From the NCBI GenBank assembly GCA_047651235.1, contig CP178758.1, positions 120,001 through 152,000 on the forward strand: 32,000 nucleotides of DNA. The letters are read 5' to 3'. This document shows, piece by piece, positions 5,565 to 30,540 of the stretch (position 1 is the stretch's first letter; each line of letters begins with the position of its first letter). The position numbers were made by a program, and so were the translations under genes. Origin of the DNA: Candidatus Electrothrix yaqonensis. GTDB taxonomy: Bacteria; Desulfobacterota; Desulfobulbia; Desulfobulbales; Desulfobulbaceae. Below the pieces are notes generated by a model. The model saw only the letters and a program-made list of their open reading frames with translations, ran no database searches and was not told the DNA's origin.

Positions 5565-6068
5565 TTGACAGAGGAGCACCCAGGCCGCCCTGTCAGAAAT
5601 TCTGAATACGTAAAGCGTGTAAGTGAATCTGTGGAAGCAACCGGATACGAAAAGGATTTTTATTCATGGGCGATGCAGAATGCTGCTTTGCTCCGCGAAC
5701 GGAGGCTGCAGGAAATTGATACGGAGAATATAGCAGAAGAGCTTGAGGCGATGGGTAAAAAAGAAAGGAGAGAACTCATCAGCCGTCTGAGCGTCCTGAT
5801 TGCCCATCTGCTGAAATGGCCGTATCAGGCTGTAAGAAGATCGAGAAGCTGGAAAAATACTGTCTCAACGCAGCGTATCGATATCAACGAACTCTTTGAA
5901 GACAGTCCGAGCCTTCGGCATGGCCTCGGAGAGACAATAAAAAAGGCGTATAAAAAAGCGGTGCTGAAGGCGGAGGATGAAACCGGTATCGCCAAGGAGC
6001 AGTTTCCCGGAAATTGTCCGTTTTCAGCTGAAGAAATACTCAATGAAGATTTTTTCCCGCAGGAATAG
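5565..6068 (+). CDS. DUF29 family protein
   Basis: YEKDFYSWAMQNAALLRERRLQEIDTENIAEELEAMGKKERRELISRLSVLIAHLLKW matches the DUF29 pattern as I remember it. The start is uncertain: TTG at 5565 in the track, or possibly GTG at 5631. Confidence 0.7.
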   Translation: MTEEHPGRPVRNSEYVKRVSESVEATGYEKDFYSWAMQNAALLRERRLQEIDTENIAEELEAMGKKERRELISRLSVLIAHLLKWPYQAVRRSRSWKNTVSTQRIDINELFEDSPSLRHGLGETIKKAYKKAVLKAEDETGIAKEQFPGNCPFSAEEILNEDFFPQE

Positions 6069-7312: not shown

Positions 7313-8407
7313 ATGAATATGTCAGCAGCAGAAAATTTGTACCCTGTCCACAACAGCATCGGTAATGCCGTACGCGCCATGTTCCCGGAAAGCGCGTTTT
7401 TCATCAACTCGGTCCTGGCCATTGTCGGCCTGATGGCCGTGGTTTCGGCTCTGGCTGCCGTCCTAATCCTGATGGAGCGCAAGGTGGTTGCCCATTTTCA
7501 GGTGCGGCTCGGTCCTATGCGGGTCGGGTATCACGGCGTCCTGCAGCCCCTGGCCGACGGACTCAAGCTGATTTTCAAGGAGATTCTCAAGCCCAGAGGA
7601 GCAGACACCTTTATCTTTTACCTCGCCCCGATGCTGCCCCTGAGTGCGACCTTTCTTATCATGGCGGTTCTGCCCTTTGATCACCATCTGCAGGTAGCTG
7701 ATCCGGATGGAGGCGTGCTCTATGTGCTCGGTATTTCTGGCCTGACCGTGCTCGGTATTCTGCTGGCTGGCTGGTCGTCCAACAACAAGTATTCCCTGCT
7801 CGGCGCCATGCGTTCCGGGGCTCAGATGATTTCCTTTGAGGTCTCTGTCGCCCTGATCATGCTGCTCATTGTTATGGTCTCCGGTACGACCTCCCTGCGC
7901 GGCATCGTGCTTTCTCAGCAGGGCCTGATTTTCGACTGGTGGATATTCAAGATGCCCTTTCTCGGCATTGTCTCGTTTATTATGTACTTGGTCGCCTCCA
8001 CGGCCGAACTGAACCGCACTCCCTTTGATATCGCTGAAGCGGAATCCGAGCTGGCCGCAGGGTACCATACCGAGTACTCCGGCATGAGCTTTGCCATGTT
8101 TTTCTTTGCCGAATTCGTTAATATGTTTGTCTCGGCAGGACTGGCAACCACTTTTTTCCTCGGTGGTTTTCATCCGCCTCTCCTCGACATTGCCGCTGTT
8201 GACGGCCTGTTCAATGCTATACCGGGATTTATCTGGTTTTTCGGTAAGACATTTTTTATCATTTTTGTCTACATGTGGTTCCGCTGGACCTTCCCCCGCG
8301 TCAGGGTGGATCAGCTCATGTACCTGGAATGGAAAATGATGCTGCCCTTTAATCTGCTTCTCCTGATGCTGGGTGCCGTGTTTGTGATTCAGGGTTGGGC
8401 GGGGTAG
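7313..8407 (+). CDS. nuoH: NADH-quinone oxidoreductase subunit H
   Basis: MERKVVAHFQVRLGPMRVGYHGVLQPLADGLKL, and a polytopic membrane protein with AELNRTPFDIAEAESEL. Confidence 0.95.
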   Translation: MNMSAAENLYPVHNSIGNAVRAMFPESAFFINSVLAIVGLMAVVSALAAVLILMERKVVAHFQVRLGPMRVGYHGVLQPLADGLKLIFKEILKPRGADTFIFYLAPMLPLSATFLIMAVLPFDHHLQVADPDGGVLYVLGISGLTVLGILLAGWSSNNKYSLLGAMRSGAQMISFEVSVALIMLLIVMVSGTTSLRGIVLSQQGLIFDWWIFKMPFLGIVSFIMYLVASTAELNRTPFDIAEAESELAAGYHTEYSGMSFAMFFFAEFVNMFVSAGLATTFFLGGFHPPLLDIAAVDGLFNAIPGFIWFFGKTFFIIFVYMWFRWTFPRVRVDQLMYLEWKMMLPFNLLLLMLGAVFVIQGWAG

Positions 8408-8412
8408 GCAAC

Positions 8413-9846
8413 ATGCTGGACGCCGCCATCCGGGAGACCGCTCAAGATGATATTTTTTTGGGAGAGATAGAAGCGCAGGATAATATCCTGCTGAATTATT
8501 TTGCTGAAAAAATAGTCGTTGACGATTCACTGACCAGGCGGCTTGTCAGCTTTCAGGCCAATAAAAGCCGAACGTATTACAGGTGGTATAAATATAAAGA
8601 AGCATTTTCTGCTGATCTGATCGAATATCTTTTCCGGAAATACAATATAAAAAAAGGAAAAATACTTGATCCGTTTGCCGGTGCCGGAACTGCCTTATTT
8701 GCCTGTTCTGCTTTGGGGCATCCTGCTGAAGGGATTGAGGTTTTACCGGTTGGACAGAAGATCATAGAAGCAAATATTCTTGCCAGAGGTAATGGAAAAC
8801 AGAGTATTATCTCTGTTTTGGAAAGATGGGCTGCTGAACAGCCGTGGGAGAGGGAAGGTAAAAGGAAAAAAGTTGAGGTATTCCGGATAACAGACGGGGC
8901 ATATCCCAAAGAGACATATACAAAAATAGAAAGGTATTTAAACGATATCGAGGGAGAGTGTGCAGAAGCACAGGAAATCTTATTGTTTGCCCTGCTCTGT
9001 GTTGCTGAGTTAATAAGTTACACGAGAAAAGACGGGCAGTATCTCCGCTGGGATTATCGGGCTGGGAGAAAGATTGGCAAGACGGCTTTTGATAAAGGGA
9101 AAATTTTATCCTTTGATGAAGCTGTCGTAAAAAAGCTGAACGAAATAAAAAAAGATATTGAACTTGGCGACAGAAAAAATGATCTGTTTTCTTTTATGCA
9201 GAAAGATATACCGGCGGGCAGGCTCAGGCTGTACCGAGGCTCCTGTCTGGAGATTCTGCCTCAATTGGAAAGCAATACCTATACCGGGATAATTACGTCA
9301 CCACCTTACTGTAACCGCTATGATTATACGAGAACGTATGCTTTAGAACATGCATTGCTCGGTGTAAAAGAAACCGAGTTGTCGAATCTGCGGCAGGCTA
9401 TGTTAAGCTGTACAGTAGAAAATAAGGCCAAAGAACTTGTCGGACTGCATCATAAATGGAAAAGAGCAGTGGATATATGCGACAATCTTCCTTTATTGCA
9501 GCAGATACTGCAGTACCTGTACTATAAAAAAGAGAAAAAAGAATTGAATAATAACGGTATTGCCCGGATGGTGCGGGGGTATTTCTATGAAATGGCTTGT
9601 GTGATTCAGGAATGCCGCAGGGTGCTGGAAAAAGGCGGTATGATGTTCATGGTGAATGATAATGTCAGGTATGCCGGAGCAGCATTGTCCGTTGATACAA
9701 TTCTTTCAAAGATAGCAGAGGAAATAGGATTCCGGATAAACAATATTCTTGTTCTGCCCCAAGGCAAAGGAAACAGTTCGCAGCAGATGGGCCGACATGG
9801 ACGGGCAGTTTTGAGGAAATGCGTCTATGTATGGGAAAAAGGATGA
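8413..9846 (+). CDS. Site-specific DNA methyltransferase (amino-MTase; motif I before motif IV)
   Basis: Motif I ILDPFAGAGTALFA and motif IV IITSPPYCNRYDY. The N-terminal YRWYKYKEAFS is typical of this MTase group. I prefer the ATG at 8413, 5 nt after the nuoH stop. The track's TTG at 8395 would overlap nuoH. Confidence 0.9.
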   Translation: MLDAAIRETAQDDIFLGEIEAQDNILLNYFAEKIVVDDSLTRRLVSFQANKSRTYYRWYKYKEAFSADLIEYLFRKYNIKKGKILDPFAGAGTALFACSALGHPAEGIEVLPVGQKIIEANILARGNGKQSIISVLERWAAEQPWEREGKRKKVEVFRITDGAYPKETYTKIERYLNDIEGECAEAQEILLFALLCVAELISYTRKDGQYLRWDYRAGRKIGKTAFDKGKILSFDEAVVKKLNEIKKDIELGDRKNDLFSFMQKDIPAGRLRLYRGSCLEILPQLESNTYTGIITSPPYCNRYDYTRTYALEHALLGVKETELSNLRQAMLSCTVENKAKELVGLHHKWKRAVDICDNLPLLQQILQYLYYKKEKKELNNNGIARMVRGYFYEMACVIQECRRVLEKGGMMFMVNDNVRYAGAALSVDTILSKIAEEIGFRINNILVLPQGKGNSSQQMGRHGRAVLRKCVYVWEKG

Positions 9847-9849
9847 TAC

Positions 9850-10809
9850 ATGCCGTTCAGGATTCATCTGAAGTCATACAAAGACCTCATTACACCCTAT
9901 GAAAAAACGCGGGCCGGATTTATTGCTCTGGCACTTGAGAAAAACAGAAAAGCAACACCTTTTATTGAGGAAGCCAAGGTGCTTAAGGCGTTGGCTTTAA
10001 AGGCGGAAATACCAAGAAAGTTGTTATTGATTCATGAAATAGAAAATTCATTACTGACAGCTGCAGGGATTTCGGAAAAAGCAAAGAATCATCTGCAGGA
10101 GGAAGACAAGAAGGAGGCAATCAAAGGATTAATCGATAACTTTCTCGAACCTGCGGGCAGCTCTTTTATTGAAGAACTGGTTTATCGTTTCCTGCTGACA
10201 AGAGGAGATGCTCTCGGCGGCAGCATCCGAAATCTCTCCGGCGCACTGGGTGAATGGCGGTTTACCAGAATATTCATTTCCACCTGTTCGGTAGGCGGCA
10301 TGACTGTTGAATATCTTGATGCAAAGAGCAGGAAATGGATGCGGGCAGATACTGAACCGGAAATAGAGAAAAGGATTAAGGGGCTGCATTGGCTTTCTTG
10401 TGGAAATCCTCGTACGTTAATTTATAATTTAACCGTACCCACAGTGCAGAAAAATGTTGATCTCTGCCTGTTTGATTGTTCTCCCGATGAAATTATATTC
10501 GGCAAAAACAAAGAATCTGTTCACTTCAAATCGAAAAAATATCTTGCACTGGGCGAGCTGAAAGGAGGTATTGATCCGGCAGGAGCGGATGAACATTGGA
10601 AAACAGCGAACTCTGCTCTTGAGAGAATCAGGAAGGCTTTTTCCGGACAAAACTGCAGGCCGAGAACATTTTTTGTCGGTGCTGCGATAGAACATGCTAT
10701 GGCTGAAGAAATATTTCAGCAGCTGGACAGCGGCAGGTTATCAAATGCAGCAAACCTGACCGATGAGAAGCAGGTCGTTTCACTGTGTGATTGGCTCATA
10801 AAATTATAG
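9850..10809 (+). CDS. Putative type II restriction endonuclease partner (PD-(D/E)XK-like)
   Basis: Starts 3 nt after the MTase stop. Candidate catalytic pattern VDLCLFD ... LGELKGG (D...E-x-K). The family was not identified. The call rests mainly on context. Confidence 0.55.
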   Translation: MPFRIHLKSYKDLITPYEKTRAGFIALALEKNRKATPFIEEAKVLKALALKAEIPRKLLLIHEIENSLLTAAGISEKAKNHLQEEDKKEAIKGLIDNFLEPAGSSFIEELVYRFLLTRGDALGGSIRNLSGALGEWRFTRIFISTCSVGGMTVEYLDAKSRKWMRADTEPEIEKRIKGLHWLSCGNPRTLIYNLTVPTVQKNVDLCLFDCSPDEIIFGKNKESVHFKSKKYLALGELKGGIDPAGADEHWKTANSALERIRKAFSGQNCRPRTFFVGAAIEHAMAEEIFQQLDSGRLSNAANLTDEKQVVSLCDWLIKL

Positions 10810-11533: not shown

Positions 11534-12063
11534 TGAGTGATGTTCTCTTTTATCTGCTGGCTGCGCTGCTGGTGACCCTGTCATGCTTGGTGGTGCGTCT
11601 GCCCAATATGCTGCACAGCGCCATCGCCCTGATCGGTTCCTTCTTTATCACGGCAGCTCTGTACATCATGCTGCAGATCGAGATGCTGGCCCTGGCCCAG
11701 ATCATGCTGTATATCGGCGGCATTGTTGTTTTTATGCTGATCATTATTCTGCTGACCACCGGCCTTGGAGTAGACAACAAACTAAGTCAGATCAGCGCGG
11801 GCAAATGGCTCAGCAAGGGACTGCTGACCGGAACGCTGTTCACCGGTCTGCTCTATTTTTTCACCGAAAACGCTTCATCTCTGCTTGAGGCCTCAAGTCA
11901 TCGGGCCGCGCCGGTTACCATCGACCAGATCGGTTTCCGTCTGCTGTCCCCGGAAAACGGCTTTATCGTGCCGTTTGAGGTGGTGTCGCTGCTGCTCCTT
12001 GCCGCTCTGGTCGGCGCAGTGGTGCTTGCCCGTAAAGATGCTGATAAGGAGGACCAGTCATGA
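11527..12063 (+). CDS. nuoJ: NADH-quinone oxidoreductase subunit J
   Basis: Hydrophobic 178-aa protein overlapping the nuoI stop. FEVVSLLLLAALVGAVVLARK is typical of NuoJ. The start is either 11527 or 11533. Confidence 0.9.
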   Translation: MLMSDVLFYLLAALLVTLSCLVVRLPNMLHSAIALIGSFFITAALYIMLQIEMLALAQIMLYIGGIVVFMLIIILLTTGLGVDNKLSQISAGKWLSKGLLTGTLFTGLLYFFTENASSLLEASSHRAAPVTIDQIGFRLLSPENGFIVPFEVVSLLLLAALVGAVVLARKDADKEDQS

Positions 12064-12365
12064 CCCTGTCCCATTGTATCGCCCTGTCGCTGATCCTCTG
12101 CGGGATCGGGCTGTTCGGGATGCTGACCCGGCGGAACCTGTTGGGAATTCTCCTATCGGTGGAGATTATTCTCAACGGGGCCAACATCAACTTTGCCGCC
12201 TTTGCTCATTTCAAAGCGGCAGACCCGGTTGCCGGTGCCGTGTTTCCGATCTTTGTTATGGCGGTCTCGGCCTGTGAAATAGCGGTGGCTCTGGCAATTA
12301 TCCTTTCCATGTACCGTCATAAAAAACAGCTTGACGTGTATCGGCTGGAGGAACTCAATGGCTGA
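12060..12365 (+). CDS. nuoK: NADH-quinone oxidoreductase subunit K
   Basis: 101-aa protein with three TM helices and the LLSVEIILNGANINF motif. ATGA overlap with nuoJ. Confidence 0.9.
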   Translation: MTLSHCIALSLILCGIGLFGMLTRRNLLGILLSVEIILNGANINFAAFAHFKAADPVAGAVFPIFVMAVSACEIAVALAIILSMYRHKKQLDVYRLEELNG

Positions 12366-14310
12366 TTATATTTTTTTGAACAGTTACCTGATCCTGCTCT
12401 GTCCGCTGCTCAGCTTTGTCCTGATCGGGCTGAAATATCTCCGTGCGGACAATCAATTTGTCGGTAAGCTCGCCATCACCCTGTCCGGCATTTCATGCGG
12501 CTATGCCTTGCTCACCGCCCTGACCTATCTGATTGTGGTGCTGGGCAATGGGCAGCCGTACCCGGACAAGCTGGCCTTTGATGTGGGCTGGCTCAACTTC
12601 GCTCCTGACCTGACCGCCAATATGGGGATCTATTTGGACCCCATCTCAGTAATGATGCTGGTGGTGGTCACGGTGATCTCCCTGCTGGTTAATATCTATT
12701 CAGTCGGTTATATGAAGGGCGATCCTTCCTTTAACCGTTTTTTTTCTCTGCTGGCCCTGTTTTCCTTTTCCATGCTGGGCTTGGTGATTTCCAGCAATAT
12801 CCTCCAGATGTTTGTCTTCTGGGAACTGGTCGGCGTTTCGTCGTATTCTCTGATCGGTTTCTGGTACGAAAAGCCCTCTGCTGTAGCGGCTTCGAAAAAA
12901 GCCTTTATCATGACCCGTTTTGCCGACGCCTTTTTCCTCCTGGGTATTCTGCTGGTCAGCTTCCAGAGCGGCAGTTTCAGTTTCCAGACCCTGAACAGCC
13001 CGGAGACCGCAGCCCTGCTTAATAAAAAATTTCTTTTTGCAGGCATGTCAGTCAATATGCTGACCTTGGCCACCTTGCTCATCTTCTGCGGCGGCTGGGG
13101 AAAATCAGCCATGTTTCCCCTCCATGTCTGGCTGCCTGATGCAATGGAAGGCCCGACCCCGGTTTCCTCTATTATTCACTCGGCAACTATGGTTGTAGCC
13201 GGTGTCTACCTGACTGCCCGGATGTTTCCCCTGTTCGCTGCTGCGGAAAGCACCCTGTTCGTGATTCAGTGTATCGGTGCCTTCACCGCTCTGTTTGCCG
13301 CTATCATTGCCATCACTCAGATGGACATCAAGCGGATTCTGGCCTTTTCCACCCTGTCGCAGTTGGGCTATATGATTTTTTCATTGGGAGCCGCAAAGGT
13401 CTGTGCAGAGGCCGTGCATCACGGGCCTGACGTAAATCCGCTGGGCTATTCAGCCTCCATGTACCACGTCTTTACCCACGCCTTTTTTAAATGCATGCTC
13501 TTCCTCGGTGCAGGCTCCATCATCCATGTTGTCCACAGCAACGACATCATGAAGATGGGCGGGCTGAAATCGTTGATGCCCAGAACCTACTGGTCACTGC
13601 TGGCCGCCTGTCTGGCCATTGCCGGAGTCTTTCCGTTCAGCGGTTTCTGGTCCAAAGACGCCATTCTGCTGTCTGCCCTGCAGTCCGGCCATACCGTCAC
13701 CTTTCTGGTCGGTTTGGTCACCGGCGGGCTGACTGCCTTTTATATGTTCCGTTTTTTCTTCCTTATCTTTCATGGAGAGGCACGCTCCGAACTGCATGAG
13801 GTGCATGAAGACCCTTGGATGACTTGGCCGATCGTCGTTCTGACCGTACCGACCATTTTTGCCGGATTGCTGGAGCATTCTTTTATGGCACAGGTTGTCC
13901 CGCCCCATCTCGGCGAAGCCGGACATTTTGCCCATCCGGGCTGGCTACCGTGGCTGGCTACCCTTGCTGCGGTCCTTGGTATCGGCGGCGCATGGCTGCT
14001 ATACGGCCAGGGAAAGACGGAAGCTGCCGCACGACTGAAGAATATCTTCGGGCCAGCGTATACGGTGGTATCCAACAAGTTCTACATGGATGAAGTGTGG
14101 TTGTTCATTACCCATAAGATCATCTTTGCCTATATCGCTGCGCCGATCAAATGGTTTGACCGCCATATTGTGGACGGCACCATGAACCTCTGCGGCTGGC
14201 TGCTGCATGTCGGCGGTAAGGGAGTACGGCTTGCCCAGAACGGGCAGTTGCAGTTTTACCTCGGGGCTACGGTGATCGGCTTTATTGCGCTGCTGTTTTT
14301 GGGGCAATAA
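12358..14310 (+). CDS. nuoL: NADH-quinone oxidoreductase subunit L
   Basis: Antiporter-like subunit with WELVGVSSYSLIGFWY, SAMFPLHVWLPDAMEGPTPVSSIIHSATMV and a long C-terminal helix region. I prefer the ATG at 12358, which overlaps the nuoK stop (ATGGCTGA), over the track's TTG at 12331. Confidence 0.95.
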   Translation: MADYIFLNSYLILLCPLLSFVLIGLKYLRADNQFVGKLAITLSGISCGYALLTALTYLIVVLGNGQPYPDKLAFDVGWLNFAPDLTANMGIYLDPISVMMLVVVTVISLLVNIYSVGYMKGDPSFNRFFSLLALFSFSMLGLVISSNILQMFVFWELVGVSSYSLIGFWYEKPSAVAASKKAFIMTRFADAFFLLGILLVSFQSGSFSFQTLNSPETAALLNKKFLFAGMSVNMLTLATLLIFCGGWGKSAMFPLHVWLPDAMEGPTPVSSIIHSATMVVAGVYLTARMFPLFAAAESTLFVIQCIGAFTALFAAIIAITQMDIKRILAFSTLSQLGYMIFSLGAAKVCAEAVHHGPDVNPLGYSASMYHVFTHAFFKCMLFLGAGSIIHVVHSNDIMKMGGLKSLMPRTYWSLLAACLAIAGVFPFSGFWSKDAILLSALQSGHTVTFLVGLVTGGLTAFYMFRFFFLIFHGEARSELHEVHEDPWMTWPIVVLTVPTIFAGLLEHSFMAQVVPPHLGEAGHFAHPGWLPWLATLAAVLGIGGAWLLYGQGKTEAAARLKNIFGPAYTVVSNKFYMDEVWLFITHKIIFAYIAAPIKWFDRHIVDGTMNLCGWLLHVGGKGVRLAQNGQLQFYLGATVIGFIALLFLGQ

Positions 14311-14326
14311 AGCCTGATGCGATCAA

Positions 14327-14578
14327 ATGTTTATACATGTTGAGCAGGCAAGACACATCAGCGGTTATAAGGTATGGCTGTCCTTTAATGACGGTTTGGA
14401 AGGCGAAATAGACTTATCTTCCGAATTAGACGGTGAATTATTTGAACCGTTGAAAGAGATCGAATTTTTTAAATCGTTTATCGTAGAAGGTCATACGCTT
14501 TCATGGAGTAACGGTGCTGATTTCGCCCCGGAATTTCTGCGTGAGCGCATAGTTGAATCCGGCTTGATTGATGCGTAA
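14327..14578 (+). CDS. DUF2442 domain protein (orphan, no DUF4160 partner)
   Basis: V..A....GYKVWLSFNDGLEGEIDL...FEPL....FF..F.V.G.TLSW.NGADFAPEFL matches the DUF2442 pattern. It is a paralog of 15438-15698. Confidence 0.8.
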   Translation: MFIHVEQARHISGYKVWLSFNDGLEGEIDLSSELDGELFEPLKEIEFFKSFIVEGHTLSWSNGADFAPEFLRERIVESGLIDA

Positions 14579-14627
14579 CTGTCGCGTCCCGTGTGATAAT
14601 ATACCTGCGAGAAGTTGGCCCTTGTTT

Positions 14628-14708
14628 CTTGCCCAGAACGGACAGCTGCAGTTTTATCTTGGAGCCACGGTTGTCGGATTTATCGTGCTGTTGTTCTTTG
14701 GGAAATGA
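14628..14708 (+). pseudogene. Detached, diverged copy of the last 26 codons plus stop of nuoL
   Basis: Encodes LAQNGQLQFYLGATVVGFIVLLFFGK*, against LAQNGQLQFYLGATVIGFIALLFLGQ* at 14230-14310. My hand alignment finds about 16 mismatches in 81 nt, mostly at synonymous sites. Confidence 0.85.
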
Positions 14709-14953
14709 CGAATAAGGATGCTACTATGGGGGCGGCCTATGAACTCTACCGCAAAGGTAAAGCGATCGGCTGTGTCATAGACCCTCTCACGAACCCGGAG
14801 CAGGAAATTTCGCCAACGTGCGAACCTGATCTCAAAGAGTTCATATCGGCTATAAAGGTCAAGGATGCCAAAGTTAAAAATAGCATGATTTGCTACAAAT
14901 ACAAAACCCTAAACTTCAAACAAGATAGTAATAGTATAAATAATGACAAATAG
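14705..14953 (+). CDS. Hypothetical small protein (82 aa)
   Basis: The ATG at 14705 overlaps the TGA of the nuoL-end fragment (ATGA coupling). Product is MTNKDATMGAAYELYRKGKAIGCVIDPLTNPEQ... No family recognised, and the RBS is weak. Confidence 0.3.
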   Translation: MTNKDATMGAAYELYRKGKAIGCVIDPLTNPEQEISPTCEPDLKEFISAIKVKDAKVKNSMICYKYKTLNFKQDSNSINNDK

Positions 14954-15029
14954 AGTTGAGTTACAGAAGAACGAAGATTGGGCTTTTAGAAGAAATAGAA
15001 CGTTTAGAGCAAACTAAGGAAAATCTGCT

Positions 15030-15128
15030 GTGGAATGGGCTGGCGTCATAAACAATCCTCCGCTGAAGGATCTGCCGTTTAAGGCAGTGATCTGTTCCAC
15101 ATCGAAATGCGAAATAATAACTCGGTGA
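15030..15128 (+). pseudogene. Diverged copy of the first 18 codons of the Uma2-like gene, then unrelated sequence to a stop
   Basis: VEWAGVINNPPLKDLPFK (GTG start) compares with MEWASVINNPLLKDLPFK at 15698-15751. There are 6 mismatches in the 53 nt after the start position. Confidence 0.7.
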
Positions 15129-15166
15129 TGTATATCAGAGATAATCGGCAACCTTCTGAATAGTTG

Positions 15167-15433
15167 ATGCCTACTATTTCAATGTTTTATGGAATTATTG
15201 TTCGGATGTTTTGTGCGCCGTCCGAACATAATCCCCCGCATATTCACGCATATTACCAAGATGATAAAGCTGTTGTGGACATACAGAAGTGCAAAATTAC
15301 AGAAGGCCAACTTCCTCGGAAGCAGAAAAGGTTGATTTTGGCATGGGTAGAAATCCATCAGGACGAGTTACTTGCAAATTGGAGCTTAGCGTCAAAAGGT
15401 GAATTACCCTTTAAAATTGATCCGTTAAAGTAG
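15167..15433 (+). CDS. DUF4160 domain protein
   Basis: MPTISMFYGIIVRMFCAPSEHNPPHIHAYYQDDKAVVDI is the hallmark DUF4160 N-terminus. I prefer the ATG at 15167 over the TTG at 15164. Confidence 0.85.
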   Translation: MPTISMFYGIIVRMFCAPSEHNPPHIHAYYQDDKAVVDIQKCKITEGQLPRKQKRLILAWVEIHQDELLANWSLASKGELPFKIDPLK

Positions 15434-15437
15434 GATT

Positions 15438-15698
15438 ATGTATTTATCTGTTAAAAATGTTGTGCCGCTCGCAGATTATAAATTGCTTCTGACGTTTGAA
15501 AATGAAGAAGTCAAAATATTTGATCTTACTCCTTACTTGGCAACAGGACAATTTTCAGAACTTCGGGATATTGCACTATTCAACTCTGTCTCCGTCTCTT
15601 TCGATTCGATAGAATGGGCTAATCATTTAGATTTAGACCCAGAGTTTTTGTACAAGAAAAGCACAACAGTCAATAATCCACAGAACATTACAAACTGA
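15438..15698 (+). CDS. DUF2442 domain protein (partner of DUF4160)
   Basis: Lies 4 nt after the DUF4160 stop. V.PL.DYKLLLTFENEEVKIFDL.PYL..G.F..L....LF.SV.V.F.SIEW.N.LDLDPEFLY. Its stop overlaps the next ATG (TGATG). Confidence 0.85.
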   Translation: MYLSVKNVVPLADYKLLLTFENEEVKIFDLTPYLATGQFSELRDIALFNSVSVSFDSIEWANHLDLDPEFLYKKSTTVNNPQNITN

Positions 15699-16153
15699 TG
15701 GAATGGGCCAGCGTCATCAATAATCCTCTGCTGAAGGATCTGCCGTTCAAGATCGAGCTGAACAAATGGGGAAAAATCCTCATGAGTCCGGCGAGCAACA
15801 ATCACGGCAGACTTCAGTACGAGGTGGGCAGGCGCATTGATCGGCATAAGGGCAGCGGCAAGGTCATCATGGAGTGCTCCATTCAGACCAGTGACGGAGT
15901 CAAGGTTGCTGATGTCGCCTGGGCATCGGATGCGTTTATTGAGAAATTCGGTTACAGCACACCGTACAGGAAAGCTCCTGAAATCTGCGTTGAAATAACC
16001 TCTCCTTCCAACTCAAAAGGTGAGATAGAAGAAAAGGTACAGCTTTATCTGGCAAAGGGAGCGCATGAAGTCTGGGTGGTGAACGAGGACGGCGATACCT
16101 TCTATCATAGTCATGAAGGACAAATTTCCGGCAGCAGAGAAATTAAGGATTAA
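15698..16153 (+). CDS. Uma2 (DUF820) family PD-(D/E)XK nuclease-like protein, short form
   Basis: KIELNKWGKILMSPASNNHG, VADVAW and PEICVEITSPSNSKGEIEEKVQLYLAKGAHEVWVV match the Uma2 core pattern (D...E-x-x-S...K). Confidence 0.75.
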   Translation: MEWASVINNPLLKDLPFKIELNKWGKILMSPASNNHGRLQYEVGRRIDRHKGSGKVIMECSIQTSDGVKVADVAWASDAFIEKFGYSTPYRKAPEICVEITSPSNSKGEIEEKVQLYLAKGAHEVWVVNEDGDTFYHSHEGQISGSREIKD

Positions 16154-16207
16154 TCAAAAAATGAACAACCTCAGCCGCAACGGCATAAACAGCAACGGAG
16201 TATATAT

Positions 16208-17719
16208 ATGAACGGACCATTTCTGCTCACCATGATCTGGGTCGTCCCTTTTATCACCGCCTTGGCCTGTCTGCCCGGCCAACCTGATGACCATCGGCGG
16301 ACCAAGAGGATCTCGCTGATCGGGAATTCGATCAACCTTCTGCTGGTCATTAGCCTGACCCTTCGGTTCATCAGCGCATCAGCGGACAGTCCGGTTGCAG
16401 AGGGCGCAGCAGCCAGCCTGTTCCATTTTACCTATAAGGTCGGCTGGTTCCAGATGATGAACATTGAGTACAACATCGGGGTGGATGCCATTTCCGTGCT
16501 CATGATGCTGCTCACCGCCATTGTTATCTTCTGCGGCGTTCTGGCCAGCTGGGGCGTGGAGAATCAGGCCAAGGAGTTCTTCATTCTCCTGAACGTTCTG
16601 GTAGCCGGAGTCTATGGGGTTTTTATCTCCATTGACCTGTTCACCTTTTTCCTGTTCTACGAGATCGCGGTGCTGCCTATGTACCTGCTCATCGGTCTCT
16701 GGGGCACCGGCAAAAAGGAATACTCAGCCATGAAGCTGACCCTGATGCTGGTGGCCGGTTCCGCCTTTATCCTGGCCGGGATTTTGGCCCTGTATTTTGA
16801 ATCCGGCCTGAACAGCTTTGATCTGCAGCAGCTCTCGCAAGTCCACTTCTCCGAATCTTTCCAGCACTGGGCCTTCCCGGTTATCTTTCTCGGATTCGGG
16901 GTGCTGGGTGCAATTTTCCCCTTTCACACTTGGTCGCCGGACGGCCATGCTTCAGCTCCCACAGCGGTTTCCATGCTCCATGCCGGGGTTCTGATGAAAC
17001 TGGGCGGCTACGGCTGCCTGCGGGTGGGCATGTATCTCCTGCCGGAAGGAGCGCAGATGTGGATGGGATTTTTCCTGATCCTGGTGACCATCAACGTGCT
17101 TTACGGCGCATTCGGGGCGATCCGCCAGACTGACCTGAAATATATCACCGCCTATTCCTCAGTTTCCCACTGCGGACTGGTGCTGTTCGGCTTCACCGCA
17201 TTGACCTTTACCGGCATCAAAGGCGGCGTACTCCAGATGATCTCTCACGGCCTGATGACCGCCCTGTTTTTCTGCCTGATCGGCATGATCTATGGTAGAA
17301 CCCATACCCGGACAGTGAGCGAGATGGGCGGCCTGATGAAGGTGATGCCCTTTCTCTCCGTGGCCTATGTGATTGTCGGGCTGGCCGGACTCGGGCTGCC
17401 CGGTCTGTCTGGTTTTGTGGCTGAGGCCAATGTCTTTGTCGGCTCCTTCAGCAATCCGAACACCATCAACCGGGTCTGCACGGTGCTGGCCGTGCTCTCC
17501 ATTGTGGTGACCGCAGTCTATGTGCTGCGGGCAGTCAACGGGCTGGTCAACGGACCGATAAAAGATCAGTTCAGGACGCTGACAGACGCATCCTTTGTGG
17601 AAAAAATTCCGGTGACGATTCTGCTCGTCTGCCTCTTCGGCATGGGCATCCTGCCCGGCTGGATCGTTGAGCTGGTCAACAATGCTGTTCACCCCATTTA
17701 CAACAACCTGATGCGATAG
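16208..17719 (+). CDS. nuoM: NADH-quinone oxidoreductase subunit M
   Basis: Antiporter-like subunit with FYEIAVLPMYLLIGLWG, FPFHTWSPDGHASAPTAVSMLHAGVLMKLGGYG and AYSSVSHCG. Confidence 0.95.
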   Translation: MNGPFLLTMIWVVPFITALACLPGQPDDHRRTKRISLIGNSINLLLVISLTLRFISASADSPVAEGAAASLFHFTYKVGWFQMMNIEYNIGVDAISVLMMLLTAIVIFCGVLASWGVENQAKEFFILLNVLVAGVYGVFISIDLFTFFLFYEIAVLPMYLLIGLWGTGKKEYSAMKLTLMLVAGSAFILAGILALYFESGLNSFDLQQLSQVHFSESFQHWAFPVIFLGFGVLGAIFPFHTWSPDGHASAPTAVSMLHAGVLMKLGGYGCLRVGMYLLPEGAQMWMGFFLILVTINVLYGAFGAIRQTDLKYITAYSSVSHCGLVLFGFTALTFTGIKGGVLQMISHGLMTALFFCLIGMIYGRTHTRTVSEMGGLMKVMPFLSVAYVIVGLAGLGLPGLSGFVAEANVFVGSFSNPNTINRVCTVLAVLSIVVTAVYVLRAVNGLVNGPIKDQFRTLTDASFVEKIPVTILLVCLFGMGILPGWIVELVNNAVHPIYNNLMR

Positions 17720-19272: not shown

Positions 19273-20178
19273 ATGGGTATATGCATGAAGGAACCCTTCT
19301 TCACAACATCCCGAGGAATTCGTTACGACACCGATTGCCTCGAAGTGCTTGGAGAAATGAAGTCCGGCACTATCGATACAGTGTTTGCGGATCCACCGTT
19401 TAATATCGGGAAGGACTATAAAAACGGGTACAACGACAAAGTTAGACATACTGACTATTTAACGTGGTGCCGACAATGGATACTTGAATGCTGCCGTGTG
19501 GTAAAACCGGGCGGAGCTTTTTTTCTCTATGCCACACCTGAACTGGCGGTTCAGTTCGCCTCTATTATGGGAGAAGCACTTAATTTCCGCCACTGGATCG
19601 CCCTTTCAATGAAGGGAACGTATCCTCGGGGAAAGAAACTCTATCCTGCCCATTATGCATTGCTGTACTATACGCGGGGCATACCGAAAACATTCAACAA
19701 GCTCAGACTACCCATCGAAACTTGCCGTCATTGCGGAGGTGAAATAAAAAACTACGGCGGACATCGCAATAAAATGCATCCAGAAGGGGTTAATCTTACT
19801 GATTTCTGGCCGGACACCTCTCCGAACCGCCATAAAAAATTCAAGGTTCGTCCGGGGGTAAATGAGCTTAAACTCATCATCCCTGAACGTGCTCTCCTTA
19901 TCTCGACCGAACCCGGAGATATTGTTCTGGATCCTTTCGGAGGTGGCGGTTCCACATATCAGGCGGCAGAGAAACACCAAAGAAATTGGATTGGGACGGA
20001 GCTGTATGATTCAGAACACATCCGCACCCGCATTGAAGCGCATTATTCACTTTCTGCTGCACAACAACCGCAATTCGATGTCAAGGAGCTATTCATACAT
20101 GAAAATAAGCAAAATGAAGTTCTACGGCGGGTCAAGAGAAAAAGTATGTCGTCTGGGGCTGGCGCATATATTTCTTGA
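19273..20178 (+). CDS. Beta-class DNA amino-methyltransferase (N6-A or N4-C)
   Basis: Motif IV VFADPPFNIGKDY comes before motif I VLDPFGGGGSTYQAA, the circularly permuted beta order. An RBS AGGAAA lies upstream. Confidence 0.9.
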   Translation: MGICMKEPFFTTSRGIRYDTDCLEVLGEMKSGTIDTVFADPPFNIGKDYKNGYNDKVRHTDYLTWCRQWILECCRVVKPGGAFFLYATPELAVQFASIMGEALNFRHWIALSMKGTYPRGKKLYPAHYALLYYTRGIPKTFNKLRLPIETCRHCGGEIKNYGGHRNKMHPEGVNLTDFWPDTSPNRHKKFKVRPGVNELKLIIPERALLISTEPGDIVLDPFGGGGSTYQAAEKHQRNWIGTELYDSEHIRTRIEAHYSLSAAQQPQFDVKELFIHENKQNEVLRRVKRKSMSSGAGAYIS

Positions 20179-20656
20179 GCTGCAGGAACTCCTTATCTCG
20201 ACTGAGATTAAAATTCTTGACAGGAAACAGTCAAACGGTGCCGGACGAGTGCGAGAGTTAATTGATGCCCAATTCGGGCATTACAAAGACTGGGTTCAAG
20301 CGAAATCAGGAGATATTGATTGGGTCAAACGATTTCGTTACAACCAGACCATTGTCTCCAGAATTGGGGTTGAAATTCAGGTTTCCGGCAGAAGCGACCT
20401 GCGTGCACGTGACATCGTCCACATAAGAAACAATCTTCAGGACAGTCATATAGATGTCGGTATCATTGTTGTTCCGTCGGATGAATTCAAATATTTTCTG
20501 ACCGACCGGGTCGCCAGTTTCAGTTACGCAGTACGCTATGTTGAAGAGGAACTTCGCGAGGCCCAGTCTTATCCCATTATTCTGCTGGGCATAGAGCATG
20601 ATGGATTCTCGGATGAACCTTTACCTAAAAAGAGGACCAACAAGGGTAAAAACTGA
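20099..20656 (+). CDS. Putative type II restriction endonuclease, BglII/BamHI-fold-like
   Basis: The core DWVKRF....IVSRIGVEIQVSGRSD ... VGIIVVPSD ... PIILLGI resembles my memory of BglII (D...LVEVQFS...VAIIIT...PIRLVGL). The start is the ATG at 20099 or 20114, overlapping the MTase 3-prime end. The earlier part of the track ORF (19862-) is out-of-frame read-through of the MTase. Confidence 0.6.
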   Translation: MKISKMKFYGGSREKVCRLGLAHIFLELQELLISTEIKILDRKQSNGAGRVRELIDAQFGHYKDWVQAKSGDIDWVKRFRYNQTIVSRIGVEIQVSGRSDLRARDIVHIRNNLQDSHIDVGIIVVPSDEFKYFLTDRVASFSYAVRYVEEELREAQSYPIILLGIEHDGFSDEPLPKKRTNKGKN

Positions 20657-30254: not shown

Positions 30255-30540
30255 ATGCGTACATGTTCAAATCTGACTCTGGATTTCCCTCTGGAATCAT
30301 CTGTCAATTATAGGGTATATCACATCCCGTGTGATAATATTCTTATTGGCAGAGGTCCGTTCACAATCTCGAAGGTCCTCACCGACAACGGAAAGGAGTT
30401 CACCTGTCGTTTCTGTCCGTCCGGAGAGCATGAGCCGACGGGAAACATCTGTTCGGAAGTGTGCCGATCAGTCGGGGCTTGACATGCATCACCAGTCTAT
30501 CGCTGCGACGCCCGGCTGCAGCGTCAGTTCATCTTTCTTG
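30255..30540 (+). pseudogene. Decayed fragment of a DDE (rve/integrase-core) transposase
   Basis: KVLTDNGKEFTCRFCPSGEHEPTGN resembles the integrase-core block ...LTDNGKEFT...F...E..P.G. A stop follows, then a frame shift to GLDMHHQSIAATPG (compare GIEHRLT.P..PQTNG). No intact ORF and no terminal repeats were identified. Confidence 0.45.

Follow-up and report, generated by a model that had tools for sequence, protein, structure and literature searches.

Two diverged nuoL 3′ ends around an orphan DUF2442 gene in the complex I operon of Candidatus Electrothrix yaqonensis

The nuoL end and its detached copy

In the cable bacterium Candidatus Electrothrix yaqonensis, the nuoL gene (subunit L of complex I) is followed by a small DUF2442 gene and, after it, by a second, diverged copy of the last 81 nt of nuoL. 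The locus lies in the window analyzed here, a stretch of 32,000 nt (contig CP178758.1, positions 120,001 to 152,000 of the forward strand) in which position 1 is the first nucleotide; unless a contig is named, positions refer to this window. The features between nuoL and nuoM, its normal immediate neighbor, are collected in Table 1. The nuoL gene itself is intact, and its protein is 84%–89% identical in amino acids to NuoL of Candidatus Electrothrix species and 81% identical to that of Ca. Electronema.

Table 1. Features of the nuoL–nuoM region of the window
Feature	Position	Strand	Remarks
nuoL (complex I subunit L), intact	12331–14310	+	Pfam Proton_antipo_N and Proton_antipo_M; ATG at 12358 is the gene-caller start
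Repeat copy 1, functional last 26 codons and stop of nuoL (allele B)	14230–14310	+	Ends in ...LFLGQ*
Whole nuoL–nuoM island	14311–16207	+	1.9 kb; genes co-oriented with nuo
16-nt spacer	14311–14326	+	Stands where relatives have a spacer of 27–89 nt and the DUF4160 (dhiT) gene
Orphan DUF2442 gene, DhiA-type antitoxin (dhiA_a)	14327–14578	+	83 aa, intact; Pfam PF10387, 41.3 bits (cut-off 23.9)
49-nt junction spacer	14579–14627	+	Unique to this genome; differs from the ACAA(G/T)TT junction of other lineages
Repeat copy 2, detached nuoL 3′-end remnant (allele C)	14628–14708	+	Ends in ...LFFGK*; in frame, stop TGA
ORF of 82 aa (75 aa from ATG 14726)	14705–14953	+	No Pfam hit
Detached, diverged copy of the Uma2 5′ end (ATG to GTG)	15031–15083	+	53 nt, 89% identical to 15699–15751; E = 4e-15
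Complete dhiTA-like pair (DUF4160 15164–15433, DUF2442 15438–15698)	15164–15698	+	PF13711, 87.4 bits; PF10387, 48.8 bits
Uma2-family gene (putative, restriction endonuclease-like)	15698–16153	+	PF05685; 83%–92% amino acid identity in Electrothrix and Electronema islands
nuoM, normal immediate neighbor of nuoL	16208–17719	+	

The segments 14230–14310 and 14628–14708 were compared by pairwise alignment, by blastn within the window, and with five shuffled windows. They align without gaps, with 65 of 81 positions identical (80.2%), and the blastn E value of the pair is 1.3e-16. In the shuffled windows the best other match of an 81-mer reaches only ≤38/81, and a chance similarity is therefore rejected. 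The 16 mismatches comprise 11 synonymous changes, four conservative amino acid changes (I/V, A/V, L/F, and Q/K), and the replacement of the stop codon TAA by TGA. The first 14 nt are identical between the copies, and no similarity is left in the alignment upstream of 14230 and 14628 or downstream from the two stop codons. A preliminary description of this DNA, made by eye, had reported the recurrence of the nuoL end and the same count and kinds of mismatches, which are exactly so in the alignment; the distance of 318 nt that it gave needs correction, the gap being 317 nt (14311–14627) and the start-to-start spacing 398 nt.

The two copies differ in the manner of working gene ends. Over 26 codons (Nei–Gojobori), pS is 0.57 and pN 0.068, with a dN/dS of 0.067, and a binomial test against the neutral expectation of synonymous to nonsynonymous changes gives P = 1e-4. 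Because the differences are mainly synonymous (11 synonymous to four nonsynonymous), both copies evolved as working nuoL ends, and the detached copy, allele C, looks like a formerly functional nuoL allele, judging by its codons. The preliminary description had taken it for a once-functional, diverged allele and had suggested the dN/dS comparison; the low ratio, the reading frame kept up to the stop, and the presence of endings in ...GK* in NuoL from other contigs (P0124 and P0129) all agree with this. It had also held that the pair is not a fresh target-site duplication (TSD), and indeed the 20% divergence of the copies is a typical between-species distance for nuoL ends of Electrothrix. None of the ...GK* endings is close to the remnant, and no closer match to it was found among NuoL C-termini. 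The nearest sampled relative of allele C is the 5′ two-thirds of the functional nuoL end in contig L149 (85% overall), where, as in every nearest-neighbor statement for these 81-nt ends, the alignment is short and the error wide.

An 11-nt perfect inverted repeat (GGCTTTATTGC / GCAATAAAGCC, with a loop of 15 nt) extends from 14278 to 14314, across the nuoL stop and the first bases of the 16-nt spacer. This repeat has no T run after it and is absent from related alleles. At the other end of the locus, the detached copy overlaps a downstream reading frame by the ATGA at 14705–14708. This overlap had been pointed out in the preliminary description and is present, but it carries little evidential weight, the downstream ORF (ORF82) being without homologs: among 5.8 billion proteins, it finds only itself. 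Neither ORF82 nor the 46-aa ORF that lies over the remnant is probably a gene.

The same strain is represented in an independent short-read assembly (Logan SRR31704081), in which contigs SRR31704081_8401 and SRR31704081_17840 match both halves of the window at 100% identity. Had the window been mis-joined, or had a population variant been collapsed, the two nuoL ends could come from different strains. The Logan contigs do stop and start within the 49-nt spacer (at 14609 and 14605, with an overlap of 5 nt), as such an artifact would predict, but one of them holds the complete nuoL with dhiA, while the other holds 23 non-nuoL bases, the truncated nuoL end, the island, and nuoM. Since these 23 bases precede the remnant, it is a genuinely truncated copy. 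At least four further assemblies (L081, L082, L149, and L151), which come from different samples and were made with different assemblers, moreover show comparable architectures, and the synteny of the operon requires nuoM after nuoL, so that an artifact is scarcely credible. The break at 14605–14609 is itself unlikely to be random; it might reflect population heterogeneity or low coverage at the junction.

The dhiTA cassette and nuoL alleles in relatives

Genes for DUF4160 and DUF2442 proteins form together the type II toxin–antitoxin (TA) system dhiTA, with the toxin gene first, as shown experimentally in Dickeya dadantii (PMC8198452). Growth inhibition by the toxin, its neutralization by the antitoxin, and an autoregulated promoter are experimental in Dickeya only (PMC8198452) and implied for a Thermus plasmid (PMC12724237). 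In Thermus plasmids, the DUF4160/DUF2442 pair is a persistence module, in which deletion of the second ORF is not tolerated (PMC12724237).

Both DUF2442 genes of the window match PF10387 (41.3 bits at 14327–14578 and 48.8 bits at 15438–15698). The second has an adjacent DUF4160 gene upstream, as in the toxin-first order of dhiTA. At 14327–14578, by contrast, there is no toxin gene, and the nuoL stop and the start of the DUF2442 gene are only 16 nt apart. Sister lineages keep the toxin-first order also at this place. The closest relatives of the gene in Electrothrix (76%–95% amino acid identity) were placed on contigs L081–L087, L149, L150, and L151; in nine of these (L081–L087, L149, and L151) the DUF2442 gene is the second gene of a DUF4160 + DUF2442 pair directly after nuoL. 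The pair is present in L150 too, where the contig begins inside dhiT, and in L149 the DUF4160 gene is frameshifted. Given that the relatives carry a DUF4160 partner and the window does not, the gene is an orphan, as it had been called at the outset, and dhiA_a appears from its neighborhood to be what remains of a dhiT–dhiA pair after loss of the toxin gene. Such an orphan antitoxin could act, if at all, only as an anti-addiction or immunity gene. The cable-bacterial members are putative dhiTA systems, recognized by sequence and presumably distant from the Dickeya pair. At the family level, DUF2442a proteins with 72%–80% amino acid identity are found in Gammaproteobacteria, SAR324, Limisphaerales, and Methylobacter (hits P0044, P0052, P0054, P0057, and others), and this conservation across phyla suggests a wide horizontal spread of the dhiA subfamily.

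The spacer between the nuoL stop and dhiT is 27 nt long in eight contigs; it is nearly identical across L081–L087 and different in L151. In the window, no Shine–Dalgarno-like motif is seen in the 16-nt spacer before dhiA_a, and this spacer weakly resembles the L149 spacer over the latter's first 17 nt. Within the 49-nt spacer, 16 nt (14587–14602, TCCCGTGTGATAATAT) match exactly the segment 30325–30340, 16 kb away; that segment belongs to a small palindrome (ATCACA...TGTGAT) within an ORF (30255–30482) that has a transposase-like TDNGKEF motif. The similarity does not extend beyond these 16 nt and may be due to chance.

Remnants of nuoL ends after dhiA occur in other lineages, with the ACAA(G/T)TT junction after the dhiA stop, and differ widely in length: ∼235 nt in L151 (frameshifted), ∼115 nt in L081 and L082, ∼64 nt in L149 (with an internal deletion), ∼45 nt in L087, and ∼20 nt in L150. 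In L083–L086 there is essentially none. Contig L151 (Ca. Electrothrix sp. AR4) carries two tandem units of nuoL end and dhiT/dhiA; in the second, which Uma2 follows, the toxin gene is almost wholly deleted and the antitoxin gene is chimeric. In the segment 980–1442 of this contig, the frameshifted 235-nt remnant is followed by a relic of ∼20 nt of the dhiT 3′ end, and in the chimeric DUF2442 gene the 5′ part is like dhiA_a of the window and the 3′ part like dhiA_b.

The cassette is much less diverged than the nuoL gene beside it. Between the window and L081, L083, L085, L087, and L149, dS of dhiA is 0.19–0.43; in the adjacent nuoL segment, dS is 1.0–1.25 for the pairs with clean nuoL sequence (L081, L083, and L085). 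Because dS of dhiA is far below that of the adjacent nuoL, the cassette moved between lineages. The nuoL ends themselves are also shared in part. The functional end of the window is identical to the remnant of L081/L082 at 72 of 78 positions (92.6% over 95 nt from 14210), against 63 of 78 for its own remnant and about 74% for the nuoL body of L081. The functional end of L149 is a mosaic that is remnant-like at 7/10 informative sites (positions 15–59) and functional-like at 8/8 (positions 64–89), and its functional-like part continues into the post-stop spacer. In L151, the functional and remnant copies are nearly identical from −215 to −95 and diverged over the last ∼95 nt. Contigs L081 and L082, from two strains that are otherwise almost the same in sequence, differ at 10 positions within 86 nt of the nuoL 3′ end (L081 1125–1210), at 4 in the 690 nt upstream, and at none in the 1219 nt downstream. 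Conversion of L082 from its own remnant is rejected, as only about 2 of the 10 sites match; the pattern of differences points to a short conversion tract from another, unsampled allele. The last ∼100 nt of nuoL are thus a hot spot of recombination, where alleles circulate with and around the cassette.

The island between nuoL and nuoM

In all sampled Electrothrix and Electronema, the gap between nuoL and nuoM is occupied by a variable, co-oriented island of low GC content, 0.65–4.6 kb long; in non-cable Desulfobulbaceae, the gap is mostly <100 nt (about 5–310 nt). The comparison sets loci L001–L011, L014, L017, L025, L026, L044, and L089–L094 against L012, L013, L015–L023, L029, L042, and L095–L104. 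Across the cable bacteria, the contents of the island include the widely shared Uma2 gene, a gene of 199 aa, an alkaline-phosphatase-like gene, and PIN, HicAB, Fic, or DUF2442-type small genes. The island has apparently not been described in the literature searched.

In the window, the GC content is 36%–47% in the island and 52%–59% in nuo genes. No intrinsic-terminator-like site occurs on either strand in 14100–16400, compared with 2.1 expected from shuffles, and this absence, together with the co-orientation of the genes, would agree with selection favoring read-through from nuoL into nuoM. No Rfam family was hit in the island region, and neither this search nor one for promoters yielded any sign of an RNA element or of a structured site for recombination.

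A second duplication of the same kind as that of the nuoL end, overlooked in the preliminary description, occurs 400 nt downstream. The complete dhiTA pair at 15164–15698, which has only 44% (DUF4160) and 30% (DUF2442) amino acid identity to the nuoL-linked pair, is bracketed by two Uma2 5′ ends; the arrangement mirrors that of nuoL, with the intact copy downstream. The two Uma2 ends differ by four synonymous and two nonsynonymous changes. Upstream of this second pair, the 34 nt at 15104–15137 match at 94% a segment of L002 (10058–10091) that lies upstream of a PIN-type TA cassette, and that cassette stands directly after nuoL of Ca. E. marina. The shared segment is possibly a promoter or operator piece common to both cassettes. 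In Ca. Electrothrix laxa (L025), a direct repeat of 155 nt with 96% identity (11757–11911 and 13619–13773) brackets the alkaline-phosphatase-like gene; the repeat is the 3′ end of the conserved 199-aa island gene, and the flank is thus duplicated in the same manner.

Accessory genes are present at other places of the nuo row. Between nuoH and nuoI, a co-oriented restriction–modification pair of the BsoBI type (N6_N4 methylase and Endonuc-BsobI) occupies 8395–10809; the nuoH–nuoI gap is expanded to 1.0–1.8 kb in L004, L006, L011, and L017 and is ∼65 nt in most others. Directly after nuoN, 19273–20656 holds a second methylase (N6_N4_Mtase) and a BglII-like endonuclease ORF; the two ORFs overlap, and one start is probably later. 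A small accessory gene of the DUF29 family (5565–6068) lies within the row, immediately upstream of nuoD.

Origin of the repeat and comparison with known systems

We consider it probable, with some reserve, that the 81-nt pair is a scar left by recombination at a hot spot for cassettes, where a foreign nuoL end was brought in together with dhiA and the former end was displaced downstream. On this reading, a dhiT–dhiA cassette has come to be joined with a nuoL 3′-end copy, and the highly conserved patch RLAQNGQLQFYLG in the last ∼100 nt of nuoL would offer a pairing site for DNA from another Electrothrix lineage. By host homologous recombination, the incoming nuoL end with its cassette would pair with the resident nuoL, and a single crossover would insert the incoming piece, such that nuoL is completed by the incoming end and the resident end comes to lie farther downstream, a dead fragment with no promoter. 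The routes could be a Campbell-type insertion of a circularized unit, unequal crossing-over between repeat units, or homology-facilitated illegitimate recombination. Here, if the crossover is placed in the 14 identical nt at the start, the incoming unit of 398 nt would consist of allele B (14230–14310), 16 nt, dhiA, and 49 nt, and allele C (14628–14708) would be the displaced resident end. The toxin gene would have been lost, leaving the orphan antitoxin. The same process, mirrored, would have duplicated the Uma2 5′ end around the second dhiTA pair. We infer both the recombination pathway and its direction (B incoming, C resident).

The preliminary description had ascribed the locus either to homologous recombination with a foreign nuoL-linked island or to insertion of an element carrying a replacement gene end. 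The involvement of a foreign, nuoL-linked end fits well with the DUF2442 relatives after nuoL, the low dS of the cassette, and the 92% match to the L081/L082 remnant; of an element with its own recombinase there is no sign, and no integrase was found in the island or nearby.

Several points weigh against a scar left by an incoming end. No sampled genome is near enough, nuoL being ≤82% identical in nucleotides everywhere, to show an empty or pre-insertion site: none was found in the genome-contig scan, the metagenome scan, or the exact-protein look-ups with NuoL, Uma2, DUF2442a, and ORF82, in which nothing came up beyond the same strain (Logan SRR31704081) and species whose nuoL is ≤82% identical in nucleotides. 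For want of a close relative, the direction is argued weakly, from a crossover in the identical 14 nt and from the resemblance of allele C to part of the L149 end. The 16-nt and 49-nt spacers have no counterpart in all the fetched loci, save for the weak L149 resemblance, and for this reason the history of the window is not tied stepwise to those of the other lineages. The Logan assembly of the strain does not span the junction between dhiA and the remnant. Circular intermediates and natural transformation, or other DNA uptake in cable bacteria, have to be presumed, and we know of no route of DNA uptake in these organisms. Finally, a very similar picture would result if one copy of an older in-situ duplication had undergone ordinary allelic replacement.

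That last history would start with an old tandem duplication in situ of the nuoL 3′ end and dhiTA, by unequal crossing-over or replication slippage, and would continue with allelic replacement or gene conversion of one copy. There would be no insertion with a replacement end, and the divergence would have been imported afterwards; the recombination is the same as with an incoming end, and only the order of events differs. The two tandem units of L151, with nuoL parts almost identical from −215 to −95, are what such a duplication would leave, and in L087 the remnant and the functional end of the same contig agree at all but 2 of 41 aligned positions. A single ancestral duplication, passed on to many lineages, is suggested by the ACAA(G/T)TT junction that they share, and short tracts of conversion are observed directly at the nuoL end. 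The junctions of the window, however, differ from the shared ones, so that at least one further event is needed. The synonymous bias of the remnant also means that the replaced copy would still come from a functional foreign allele, by the same inter-lineage recombination; neutral decay would give about 60% nonsynonymous changes, whereas 27% are observed (P about 0.01 in a side calculation). We regard this order of events as a rather unlikely one for the window, though the strongest of the competing histories.

Classical integrase-mediated islands sit in the 3′ ends of genes, with a replacement end in attP. The nuoL locus resembles them in that the target gene is intact, the cargo comes next, and a diverged, displaced end marks the far boundary. 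An integrative element directed at the nuoL 3′ end by a tyrosine or serine recombinase (or of an integron-like or IS-like kind), with the replacement end in its attachment site, would account for this attL/attR-like look, with the first 14 nt identical, and for the occurrence of the cassette at the same gene in many lineages. But the Pfam scans of all island ORFs and the large window ORFs reveal no tyrosine or serine recombinase, and no integrase or transposase is present in the 1.9-kb island or in the 32-kb window, save for an unrelated fragment at ∼30.3 kb. The cargo is tiny, only 317 nt. Constant att boundaries with an identical core are not found either: the remnants measure 235, ∼115, 81, ∼64, ∼45, and ∼20 nt, and in the window identity is limited to the first 14 nt. 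Terminal inverted repeats (TIRs) and an attC-like hairpin are lacking, and the same type of scar recurs at the unrelated Uma2 5′ end. Such an element is very improbable; support for it would come from a trans-acting recombinase elsewhere in cable-bacterial genomes with a core matching CTTGCCCAGAACGG. Host homologous recombination is favored over a site-specific system because there are no recombinase genes, TIRs, or attC-like fold, because the boundaries vary, and because the same scar is seen at Uma2 and in E. laxa.

Two further classes were rejected. For insertion of a transposon or IS with a TSD, the repeat is too long and too diverged (81 nt at 80% identity), and there are no inverted repeats at the borders of the cassette and no transposase. 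For an integron cassette, the fold of 14560–14650 is no better than those of shuffles (z = +0.81, computed with no formal attC model), and no integrase was found.

A bolder proposal can be made, which we hold to be unlikely: the nuoL 3′ end together with dhiTA might form a recombinase-free mobile cassette. Recombination between the flanking nuoL ends would excise a circle (398 nt here), and a RecA-mediated single crossover at LAQNGQLQFYLG would re-integrate it. In that case, re-integration into the nuoL of any cable bacterium after transfer would always rebuild the essential gene, and the conserved end of a housekeeping gene would serve as a portable homology arm. This would be a general answer to the spread of TA cassettes without mobility genes and would explain why, in cable bacteria, an accessory island that must be transcribed through universally splits the complex I operon.

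Type II TA cassettes are notoriously mobile, usually without mobility genes. The nuoL locus would be a sequence-level example of a TA cassette moving with a fragment of a conserved neighbor gene as homology anchor, and the displaced gene ends would be datable scars. It bears on how an essential respiratory operon tolerates insertions and on gene flow between uncultured species of cable bacteria. Even as an ordinary recombination scar, it would still be a marker for recombination tracts and for correct annotation.

The preferred reading, with an incoming end and a displaced one, has parallels in two known processes. One is the C-terminal displacement at rhs, cdiA, and type VI secretion system (T6SS) effector–immunity loci, described by Kirchberger et al. 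(2017; PMC5361080) and by Jackson et al. (2009), as cited there. At these loci, the arriving module uses the conserved upstream gene as its anchor, and the former tip is shifted downstream together with orphan immunity genes (PMC5361080). The likeness lies in the piece of the upstream gene that serves as homology anchor, in the dead orphan 3′ end kept downstream, in the accumulation of orphan immunity or antitoxin genes, and in the shuffling of alleles between strains. The difference lies in the anchor and the cargo. The anchor nuoL is a housekeeping respiratory gene (Proton_antipo_M) and not a polymorphic toxin, and the displaced end is no toxin tip; the cargo, a type II TA cassette, has no functional tie to nuoL, and the displaced pieces are very short, measuring 20–235 nt. 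At nuoL, then, a displaced 3′ end behind an incoming module and the exchange of alleles are found, and a polymorphic-toxin anchor is not. By this analogy, the locus appears to work like the C-terminal displacement family without being a member of it.

The other process comprises Campbell-type insertion–duplication and homology-facilitated illegitimate recombination in transformable bacteria (Prudhomme 2002 and Meier and Wackernagel 2003, as cited in PMC5361080; PMC3240628). There, as in the scheme proposed for nuoL, one homologous anchor is enough, and the target segment is duplicated or partly retained beside the insert. These accounts concern single events in the laboratory, whereas at nuoL the outcome is fixed and repeatedly re-used at one locus in uncultured filamentous bacteria. 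The scar is of a known kind, and its place, inside the complex I operon of cable bacteria, is the unexpected one.

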